IMG/VR virus record: IMGVR_UViG_2558860170_000008
DNA length: 53,298 nucleotides
Reading direction: 5' to 3' (one strand)
DNA from: a virus
Lineage: Duplodnaviria; Heunggongvirae; Uroviricota; Caudoviricetes
A program made the translations under genes and the position numbers. Below are positions 49,416 to 50,630 of this stretch, one piece after another; position 1 is the first letter of the stretch, and each line of letters opens with the position of its first letter. The notes under the pieces were generated by a model. That model ran no database searches. It was not told the origin of the DNA and saw only the letters and a list, made by a program, of their open reading frames with translations.

Positions 49416-49676
49416 ATGGATCAGGAAATGACGTTTTCACTCAGCTATGAACAACTGACCCGGTTTGCGGAAAAACGCATCCGGGAATGCAATCTGGACA
49501 GCCACGGCGTAACTTATCTCTGCGAGTCAGCCAAAGCCGGAGCCGTGCTGATCTTCTGGCATGAACTGGCCATAAATGGCTATACCTCAATGAATGCCAT
49601 AAAGAGACAGGAGATCATTGACGCCGACCATCAGCGCCTCAGAAAGCTCATCTGGCCGGAGGATGACTGGAAATGA
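49416..49676 (+). CDS. Hypothetical protein, first gene of a two-gene operon
   Basis: 86-aa ORF whose stop overlaps the next start by 4 bp. Confidence 0.4.
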   Translation: MDQEMTFSLSYEQLTRFAEKRIRECNLDSHGVTYLCESAKAGAVLIFWHELAINGYTSMNAIKRQEIIDADHQRLRKLIWPEDDWK

Positions 49677-50263
49677 CTCAGAGCCGCCGACCGTCGCCAC
49701 TGCAGCGGAGAGTGCTGATTGTGCTGGCTGCCCTTGATGAAAAACGGCCAGGACCCGTGCTGACGCGGGACATAGAACGGGTGCTGGAGCAAAGCGGGGA
49801 AGCCCCGGTCTACGGGCCAAACCTGCGCGCCTCCTGCCGTCGTCTGGAGGATGCCGGCTGGCTGCGTACCCTGCGCGCTCCGAACCTGCAGCTGGCAGTG
49901 GAGCTGACGGACGCCGGCCGGGCCGTGGCACAGCCTCTGCTGCTGGCAGAACAGGACCGCATCCGGGCAGAACAGCGTGCGGCAGAAGTCGTCGTACTGC
50001 CGCTGGTCCCGGCAGCAGGTCTGCCCGCAGGCGGCACTTCTGCCACTGATCTGGCGGTGGAGCTGAACGGCATAACGTATCAGGCCTGCCGTGGGGATTT
50101 TGTGGTGCGTCTCGACGGCAGCACCTGTCTGCAGTTATGGAATAAAGAAGGCTGGGTGGTACGCCGGGAGGGCGATCCGCTGGAAGTGGCGCAGTGGCTG
50201 CAGGCCTGTCACGATGCAGGAATGGAGGTTCGCGTACAGATAAATGAAAGTGCCGCTCCGTAA
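49673..50263 (+). CDS. Hypothetical GC-rich protein with N-terminal winged-helix-like region
   Basis: 196-aa ORF, ATG start; Arg/Ala-rich N-terminus. Confidence 0.5.
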   Translation: MTQSRRPSPLQRRVLIVLAALDEKRPGPVLTRDIERVLEQSGEAPVYGPNLRASCRRLEDAGWLRTLRAPNLQLAVELTDAGRAVAQPLLLAEQDRIRAEQRAAEVVVLPLVPAAGLPAGGTSATDLAVELNGITYQACRGDFVVRLDGSTCLQLWNKEGWVVRREGDPLEVAQWLQACHDAGMEVRVQINESAAP

Positions 50264-50282
50264 GAACACGCCTGTGCACGGT

Positions 50283-50630
50283 TTACACATCATCCCATGG
50301 TGGCAGTCGGTTAACTTTCCTGCGCCACCAGTGGAAAGAGGCCATGAGCAGTCCGGACAAAAAACCCCCCGTGATACTTATAATAATGGCCTCACCTGCC
50401 ACCATTCCTGACGGCCCCCAGTAGATAAACCACATTGCACATCCCCAGGAAATGCCCCATAAGCCCCCCGTCAGCACCGTGACCTGCCAGAACGGCATAA
50501 AGGGTAATGGCGGAAGCCGGATACCCAGCCGCCAGAGAATACGCAGAAGAGGAGGGGCATAATTGCTCCGCCACATCTTTTTGCTGTCCATCAGGGCAAT
50601 GGCCCGGGCTTTTTTCTGCTCAAAAGTCAC
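50283..50630 (-). CDS. Hypothetical integral membrane protein
   Basis: 115-aa ORF with two or three hydrophobic, Trp/Gly-rich segments. Confidence 0.5.
   Translation of the reverse strand: MTFEQKKARAIALMDSKKMWRSNYAPPLLRILWRLGIRLPPLPFMPFWQVTVLTGGLWGISWGCAMWFIYWGPSGMVAGEAIIISITGGFLSGLLMASFHWWRRKVNRLPPWDDV

Follow-up and report, generated by a model that had tools for sequence, protein, structure and literature searches.

What is the small gene block that lies between an IS629 insertion sequence (IS) and a low-GC (guanine plus cytosine) stretch in the viral record IMGVR_UViG_2558860170_000008 of IMG/VR, a stretch of 53,298 nucleotides that we call the window? It had initially been annotated as two translationally coupled plus-strand genes opposite a membrane-protein gene, with mobilisation, exclusion or partition-type roles considered possible. 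The open reading frames (ORFs), taken from the ORF list and the sequence, lie exactly in that arrangement:

49416..49676, plus strand: ydfA, 86 amino acids (aa), the first gene of the pair
49673..50263, plus strand: ydeA, 196 aa
50283..50630, minus strand: a DUF6404 gene, 115 aa, convergent with the pair

By sequence comparison these are almost certainly ydfA, ydeA and a gene of the DUF6404 family. With high confidence, the segment is an IS-truncated remnant of a plasmid ydfA-ydeA cassette with ColIa-type neighbours. IS629 has cut away the ydfA promoter and operators in the window; the initial annotation had missed both this removal and the fact that the genes are named.

The segment derives from the accessory region of enterobacterial plasmids of IncI/IncK/IncF type, to whose backbone genes the three belong. 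Many large E. coli IncF plasmids match it at 97.7-99.6% identity and have the genes annotated as two hypothetical proteins and a DUF6404 family protein. A sensitive search of PLSDB matches at least 5000 plasmid records, mostly of conjugative plasmids; the hosts among the matches listed are Escherichia, Klebsiella, Salmonella, Enterobacter, Shigella and Citrobacter. Hits to chromosomal housekeeping genes were looked for as well, and all matches are to plasmid backbone genes. YdeA has 1155 homologous proteins and YdfA 288-386. The top YdeA matches are 86-97% identical at 90-100% coverage and several of them are named YdeA; in some sources the 86-aa protein is called YdfA and the 196-aa protein YdeA. 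Clustered at 50%, the YdeA family comprises 218 clusters, many being fragments. Across one genome per species from 185,579 species, YdeA relatives occur at only 32 loci, 30 of them in Enterobacterales, the exceptions being a Pseudomonas lundensis contig and a contig of a Lachnospiraceae metagenome-assembled genome. These 32 genome contigs and five plasmid records make up the set of 37 related loci that we compare below.

The two genes are already known and named, yet uncharacterised: the literature searched assigns no function to either. In the ColV-Ia plasmid pS88 the order is cia-imm-ybaA-ydeA-ydfA, and transcripts of both ydeA and ydfA were detected (PMC3438092); the names are also used for the IncI1 plasmids R64 and pUA1135 (PMC12111858). 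The R64/pUA1135 and pS88 copies are the same genes as those of the window, whose YdeA is 94-96% and whose YdfA is 86-100% identical to IncI/IncF copies. Plasmid pS88 shares with the window imm and the DUF6404 gene as neighbours and, judged by position, the latter is probably its 'ybaA'. The window copy differs from all three in that its promoter and operators are lost to IS629, in the lack of ibfA or other cargo, and in an imm that is a pseudogene. We found no earlier description of the conserved operator array, the domain structure of YdeA or the recurrent defence cargo. On one IMG/VR contig (L052, 3600-5100) a frameshifted long-form ydfA-ydeA with its operator array stands by a Hin-type invertase and a tail-fibre-like gene, which suggests that the cassette also travels on a phage-plasmid or prophage-adjacent element.

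All three ORFs are real genes and not chance ORFs, because the ratio of nonsynonymous to synonymous substitution (dN/dS) is low, homologues number in the hundreds and the Pfam match for DUF6404 is full-length. Against diverged relatives, dN/dS of ydfA and ydeA is 0.24-0.41, and 0.29-0.37 for ydfA alone. The pair overlaps by the ATGA at 49673-49676, and 19 bp separate the stop codon of ydeA from the convergent stop codon of the DUF6404 gene. A 230-aa antisense ORF (49587..50279) was considered as a gene and rejected as a by-product of the high GC content of ydeA.

Composition had been used to describe the pair as a GC-rich operon and the region as mosaic. Measured in windows, GC content is 0.59-0.67 over 49.55-50.3 kb and 0.28-0.30 over 51.05-51.95 kb. 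By gene, only ydeA is truly GC-rich (64%, and 78% at the first codon position); ydfA, at 51%, and the DUF6404 gene, at 54%, are not. The region between IS629 and the low-GC stretch is indeed a mosaic, and it is of plasmid origin.

In relatives, ydfA-ydeA heads an operon of variable cargo, part of which is phage defence, as follows from co-transcription and from the differing same-strand genes downstream. By reverse transcription PCR in one IncI1 plasmid, pUA1135, ydfA, ydeA, ibfA and a proQ-like gene are found in a single transcript (PMC12111858). Across the 37 loci the same-strand genes after ydeA vary between lineages and often overlap ydeA or begin within about 30 bp of it. They encode IbfA, which is HEC-04 of PADLOC (E 9e-42); a PDC-S64-like protein together with PD-T4-5 (E 5e-127); in seven loci, after a long-form YdeA, a DpdC-like DUF6884 protein (E 6e-44); a staphylococcal-type nuclease (SNase); an AT3-SGNH acyltransferase; OmpC; a 350-aa protein with ProQ/FinO; and, in Klebsiella plasmids, 164-aa and 123-aa proteins with Hha.

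What kind of protein could stand at the head of such an operon? YdeA is most likely a DNA-binding regulator, judging from its predicted structure, which is confident overall (predicted local distance difference test score, pLDDT, of 87, from a 20-sequence alignment):

residues 9-78 (49697-49906): predicted winged helix
residues 80-104 (49910-49984): predicted long helix of 25 residues
residues 127-190 (50051-50242): predicted compact, beta-rich C-domain of six strands and one helix

The linker between the long helix and the C-domain is of low prediction confidence. In the N-domain, the predicted helix-helix-helix-beta-beta topology superposes on solved winged-helix regulators of MarR/PadR/HxlR-like type. 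The protein had been called Arg/Ala-rich with a winged-helix-like N-terminus; the fold prediction agrees on the winged helix, and the composition comes to 23% Ala plus Arg in the whole protein and 29% in the N-domain. The two ends are of opposite charge, the N-domain being basic, with an isoelectric point (pI) of 10.5, and the C-domain acidic (pI 4.5).

Searches of YdeA with sequence profiles from Pfam, NCBIfam, PADLOC, PHROGs and PDB return only sub-threshold winged-helix matches. The Pfam family MarR_2 (PF12802) scores 16.8 bits (E 0.008), below its gathering threshold of 27, and PADLOC gives only a weak match to the JetA winged helix. A Foldseek search of viral structures matches the winged helix only, and the C-domain of about 65 aa has no close structural match; in particular, it is not a WYL domain (an Sm-like SH3 barrel) following the winged helix. 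Mean pairwise identity is 84% for the winged helix of YdeA, 61% for its C-domain and 42% for YdfA.

The length of YdeA varies. Some relatives reach 300-430 aa through a conserved C-terminal extension of about 200 residues, for which we found no family match. Such long forms (about 400 aa) were seen at L010, L011, L015, L016 and L012 and in proteins P0241, P0247 and P0251, and an overlapping DpdC-like (DUF6884) gene usually comes after them. The DpdC-like protein is otherwise known from 7-deazaguanine DNA-modification clusters. At the other extreme, a common 169-aa variant (P0078, at least 1000 contigs) lacks, by an in-frame deletion, 27 residues at the end of the long helix and in the linker.

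YdfA is an 86-aa acidic orphan protein with no match in Pfam, NCBIfam, PADLOC, PHROG or PDB, and a profile search with diverged YdfA sequences reached hypothetical plasmid proteins only. A YdfA-like ORF of 77-94 aa lies directly upstream of ydeA in 33 of the 37 loci, often with an overlap of 1-4 nt. It is far more variable than YdeA, and the parts of the cassette are mosaic: at L003, YdeA is 96% identical and YdfA 57%.

Where would YdeA act? Within the 130 bp ahead of ydfA, intact relatives carry three palindromes of consensus AAATCATA-N5-TATGATTT, spaced 36-37 bp centre to centre. We scanned for the 17-bp motif ATCATA-N5-TATGAT with up to 2 mismatches allowed. In 31/37 loci from many genera, the palindromes keep to three fixed places, about -129, -93 and -56 relative to the ydfA ATG. 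The upstream windows hold 84 of them in 11.1 kb, versus 40 in 412 kb elsewhere, that is 7.6 against 0.097 per kb, a 78-fold enrichment.

A sigma-70-like promoter, TTAAAA-16-TATTAT with a TG upstream of the -10 element, overlaps the middle palindrome (operator 2). The first palindrome thus lies upstream of the -35 element, the second covers the -10 and the third falls in the early part of the transcript, a three-site placement that is classic for promoters under repressor control. The start predicted from this site is about 68 nt before the ydfA ATG, in agreement with the start predicted by BProm 69 nt upstream in pUA1135 (PMC12111858). No part of the cassette is better conserved than the winged helix of YdeA, in keeping with the conserved operator sequence, and the palindromes may well be operators bound by YdeA. 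Just upstream of the array, ahead of the AT-rich operator region, most intact loci, among them L003 (about 6800-6860), L005 and L004, also have a conserved stretch that is GC-rich and contains two short repeats able to form hairpins, AGATCCG..CGGATCT and GCGCGGCGGGAAACGCGC.

In the window this regulatory region is missing:

48067..49374, minus strand: an IS3-family element of IS629/IS1203 type, the upstream boundary, whose transposase reads away from ydfA
49375..49415, plus strand: the residual ydfA leader of 41 nt, with the last 5 operator nt (ATGAT), the conserved 5' untranslated region and the ribosome-binding site

The end of IS629 falls inside the promoter-proximal operator, 41 nt before the ydfA ATG. 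Here 16 intact loci read ..AAATCATGCAGGATATGAT followed without a break by TTTTACCTGTCAGAACATTATCAGATGGAGCGTGCAGGATG, and the window resumes at ATGATTTTTACC right after the IS end. A consensus scan found no promoter-like site between 49374 and 49416. The triple ATCATA-N5-TATGAT array is absent from the window and from the IncF plasmids L001 and L002, IS629 standing in its place, and an operator scan of the remaining window gave chance-level matches only.

The junction is not confined to this DNA: PLSDB holds 486 records with an IS-ydfA junction versus at least 4261 with an intact array. In the two IncF plasmids the IS end occupies slightly different operator positions, GGATATGATTTT in L001 and TATGATTTT in L002; it was located at 49374/49375 in the window and near 8070 in each of L001 and L002. 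The three differing positions may point to a hot spot for insertion or to micro-deletions that occurred repeatedly. As for the window itself, the 3-4 bp target-site duplication expected of a simple insertion is absent, the flanks (GAAGGT before the element, ATGATTT after it) being unrelated, and a rearrangement mediated by IS629, by recombination or deletion after insertion, is therefore more likely. No cargo follows ydeA in the window. With promoter and operators lost and no cargo downstream, the ydfA and ydeA ORFs of the window are probably silent or weakly expressed leftovers.

How, then, would the intact cassette work? We think it rather probable that YdeA is an operator-binding autorepressor of the cargo operon in intact plasmids, with YdfA modulating it. 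We infer that YdeA acts as a dimer, which would bind the three 17-bp palindromes flanking and overlapping the ydfA promoter and so autorepress the polycistronic operon. The first two genes of that operon would always be ydfA-ydeA, and the distal ones exchangeable cargo, abortive-infection (Abi) genes included. YdfA, translationally coupled and always present, would most likely be a small modulator of YdeA, whether as co-repressor or as anti-repressor, perhaps by way of the acidic C-domain of YdeA. With MarR/PadR/HxlR autorepressors YdeA shares the predicted winged-helix fold, a basic DNA-binding domain and, in intact relatives, palindromes that overlap its own promoter. It differs from them in scoring below the MarR_2 cut-off, in its long helix and beta-rich C-domain of about 65 aa, in its obligatory small upstream partner gene and in the extension by about 200 aa of some relatives.

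Several points weigh against autorepression by YdeA. Since the MarR_2 match is sub-threshold, family membership leans on a structure predicted from a 20-sequence alignment, and in the common 169-aa variant 27 residues of the helix and linker are missing. The palindromes could instead be bound by YdfA or by some other plasmid regulator. Co-variation of YdfA with the YdeA domains is not significant in a Mantel test (C-domain, rho 0.20, p 0.07; N-domain, rho -0.16). With its own promoter, ibfA is sufficient for defence, at an efficiency of plating (EOP) of 0.05, the whole operon giving 0.01 (PMC12111858); control of the cargo by the ydfA promoter is hence not required for the defence phenotype. 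Finally, both ORFs are intact in hundreds of IS-truncated plasmids, where they could still be expressed and useful.

Autorepression by YdeA could be one half of a more elaborate device, although we hold this to be rather unlikely: YdfA-YdeA as a two-protein switch, not described so far, in control of a plasmid cargo or defence hot spot. YdeA would shut the operon through the three operators, and YdfA, with the orphan beta-rich C-domain of YdeA, would detect phage infection or the arrival of the plasmid, whereupon Abi or DNA-modification cargo would be released. Such a switch would be a functional analogue of BrxR/CapW built of unrelated parts, which the frequent IS629 cuts in the operators would uncouple or silence.

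A related proposal, that ydfA-ydeA is an integral sensor or regulator of anti-phage defence, perceiving infection or plasmid entry and switching on Abi-type cargo as BrxR/CapW do, seems to us unlikely. Genes for HEC-04/IbfA, for PD-T4-5 with PDC-S64 and, at seven loci, for the DpdC-like protein do follow directly downstream in several lineages, and the extra C-domain of YdeA could receive a signal. Co-transcription joins the pair to ibfA, and protection by the whole operon is slightly better than by ibfA alone (EOP 0.01 versus 0.05; PMC12111858). BrxR/CapW, which combine a winged helix with WYL, resemble YdeA in that a winged helix is joined to an additional C-terminal domain and the regulator gene stands at the 5' edge of variable defence cargo; the C-domain of YdeA, however, is not WYL. 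Many loci, moreover, have non-defence cargo (OmpC, Hha, ProQ/FinO, acyltransferase) or no cargo, defence is obtained from ibfA alone (PMC12111858), and no PADLOC model covers YdfA or YdeA beyond the weak JetA winged-helix match.

Two small overlapping plasmid genes behind a palindromic operator array, with other toxin-antitoxin pairs nearby in the same variable region, also recall a type II toxin-antitoxin system of reversed order like higBA or mqsRA, in which YdfA would be the toxin and YdeA an antitoxin autoregulating through the palindromes. We regard this as very unlikely. Neither YdfA nor YdeA resembles a toxin family in Pfam, NCBIfam, PADLOC or PDB, YdfA is acidic, and YdeA, at 196-420 aa and with extra domains, is atypical of antitoxins. 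Both ORFs, besides, are intact where operators and promoter are lost, and an unregulated toxin is unlikely to be tolerated.

A partition role, with YdeA as a TubR/ParR-like winged-helix adaptor and the repeated palindromes as its centromere, is highly improbable, as no ParA, ParM or TubZ nucleoside triphosphatase (NTPase) is adjacent in the window or linked in the 37 loci, the par genes of these plasmids form separate operons with their own adaptors, there are only three sites and they overlap a promoter, and the TubR score of YdeA is no better than that of dozens of generic winged-helix regulators. The broader suggestion of mobilisation, exclusion or partition is not supported: in none of the 37 loci is a relaxase, NTPase or entry-exclusion partner linked to the pair.

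The third gene of the block belongs to DUF6404. Its product matches Pfam PF19942 with 125.2 bits (cut-off 27.6, E 2e-36) over its full length, residues 1-114 lying on profile positions 1-114 of 115, and it matches phrog_31022 (E 1e-36). The protein is basic. It had been described as a multi-pass membrane protein of 115 aa, and hydropathy predicts two membrane spans, hydrophobic segments at about residues 46-70 and 76-100. DUF6404 (PF19942) has no known function, and the literature searched does not mention it.

A functional partnership of the DUF6404 gene with ydfA-ydeA was considered and rejected. Among the 37 loci, its linkage to the pair is confined to ColIa/IncF relatives, and homologues of 48-55% identity stand alone as isolated accessory genes in 14 prophage contigs; the gene is accordingly just a neighbour of the pair. 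IncI/IncK plasmids retain no more than a 3' remnant of the gene downstream of ydeA (L005 7869-7955; L006 6614-6757), so cargo such as ibfA and ompC appears to have replaced most of the gene there.

Two further features follow beyond it:

50631..50758, no strand assigned: intergenic region with back-to-back promoter-like sites (consensus matches only) for the DUF6404 gene and imm
50759..51094, plus strand: immunity gene of the colicin Ia/E1 family (imm), a pseudogene (W66*)

The two consensus matches are GTGACA-18-TATTAT on the plus strand (50659-50688) and ATGACA-18-AATAAT on the minus strand (50713-50684). Relatives of imm are annotated as colicin E1 family immunity protein. Compared with the intact 111-aa protein of L001, the window copy has TGG changed to TAG at codon 66 and one A/T substitution, and is otherwise identical. 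No colicin gene comes after the pseudogene. The low-GC stretch at 50950-52200 (28-30%) has no ORF above about 70 aa; in pUTI89-like plasmids the matching space sits between imm and cjrABC-senB.

The Rep-like neighbour had been taken as a functional hint. This ORF, at 52732-53298, is of ColE2 type with Replicase and PriCT_1 domains, starts at profile position 56/130 and continues past the end of the window; it resembles a replication gene, truncated at the N-terminus, that many IncF plasmids share. It is unrelated to ydfA-ydeA, from which about 1.7 kb and the immunity pseudogene separate it.

On the other side, the IS629 element has the features of its IS3-family, IS629/IS1203-type group: terminal inverted repeats, TGAACCGCCCCGGG at 48067 and its reverse complement ending at 49374; an OrfA whose helix-turn-helix matches HTH_Tnp_1; an OrfB that matches rve; and an ALIL frameshift pseudoknot at 48921-49037 (Rfam). 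This IS3 pseudoknot is the only hit of the Rfam scan, and tandem repeats are negligible. The orfB of the element is broken into two frames (48639-48995 and 48109-48777), and for that reason the transposase is probably inactive. Further upstream, most of the window (approximately 885-43100) is taken up by a Mu-like transposable prophage, and IS elements are present besides. The prophage carries genes for a Mu transposase, a portal, head morphogenesis and a Gam-like protein, and two E. coli records contain elements with 92-93% identity to it. The whole arrangement over 38-53 kb was not found in any plasmid or complete E. coli genome of the collections searched.

For the window the practical upshot is small. 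The segment is a plasmid remnant, scrambled by IS elements, beside a Mu-like prophage, to be annotated as ydfA, ydeA and a DUF6404 gene and not as a mobilisation or partition locus. The pattern is a familiar one, a winged-helix autoregulator heading an accessory operon, of which the window holds a degraded copy. The cassette itself occurs in at least 6% of sequenced enterobacterial plasmids, and many of these are IncF, IncI and Klebsiella plasmids of clinical importance. If YdeA controls the cargo promoter, it would be a common regulatory node for plasmid-borne phage defence, and the cassette would be a convenient marker of a plasmid cargo hot spot.

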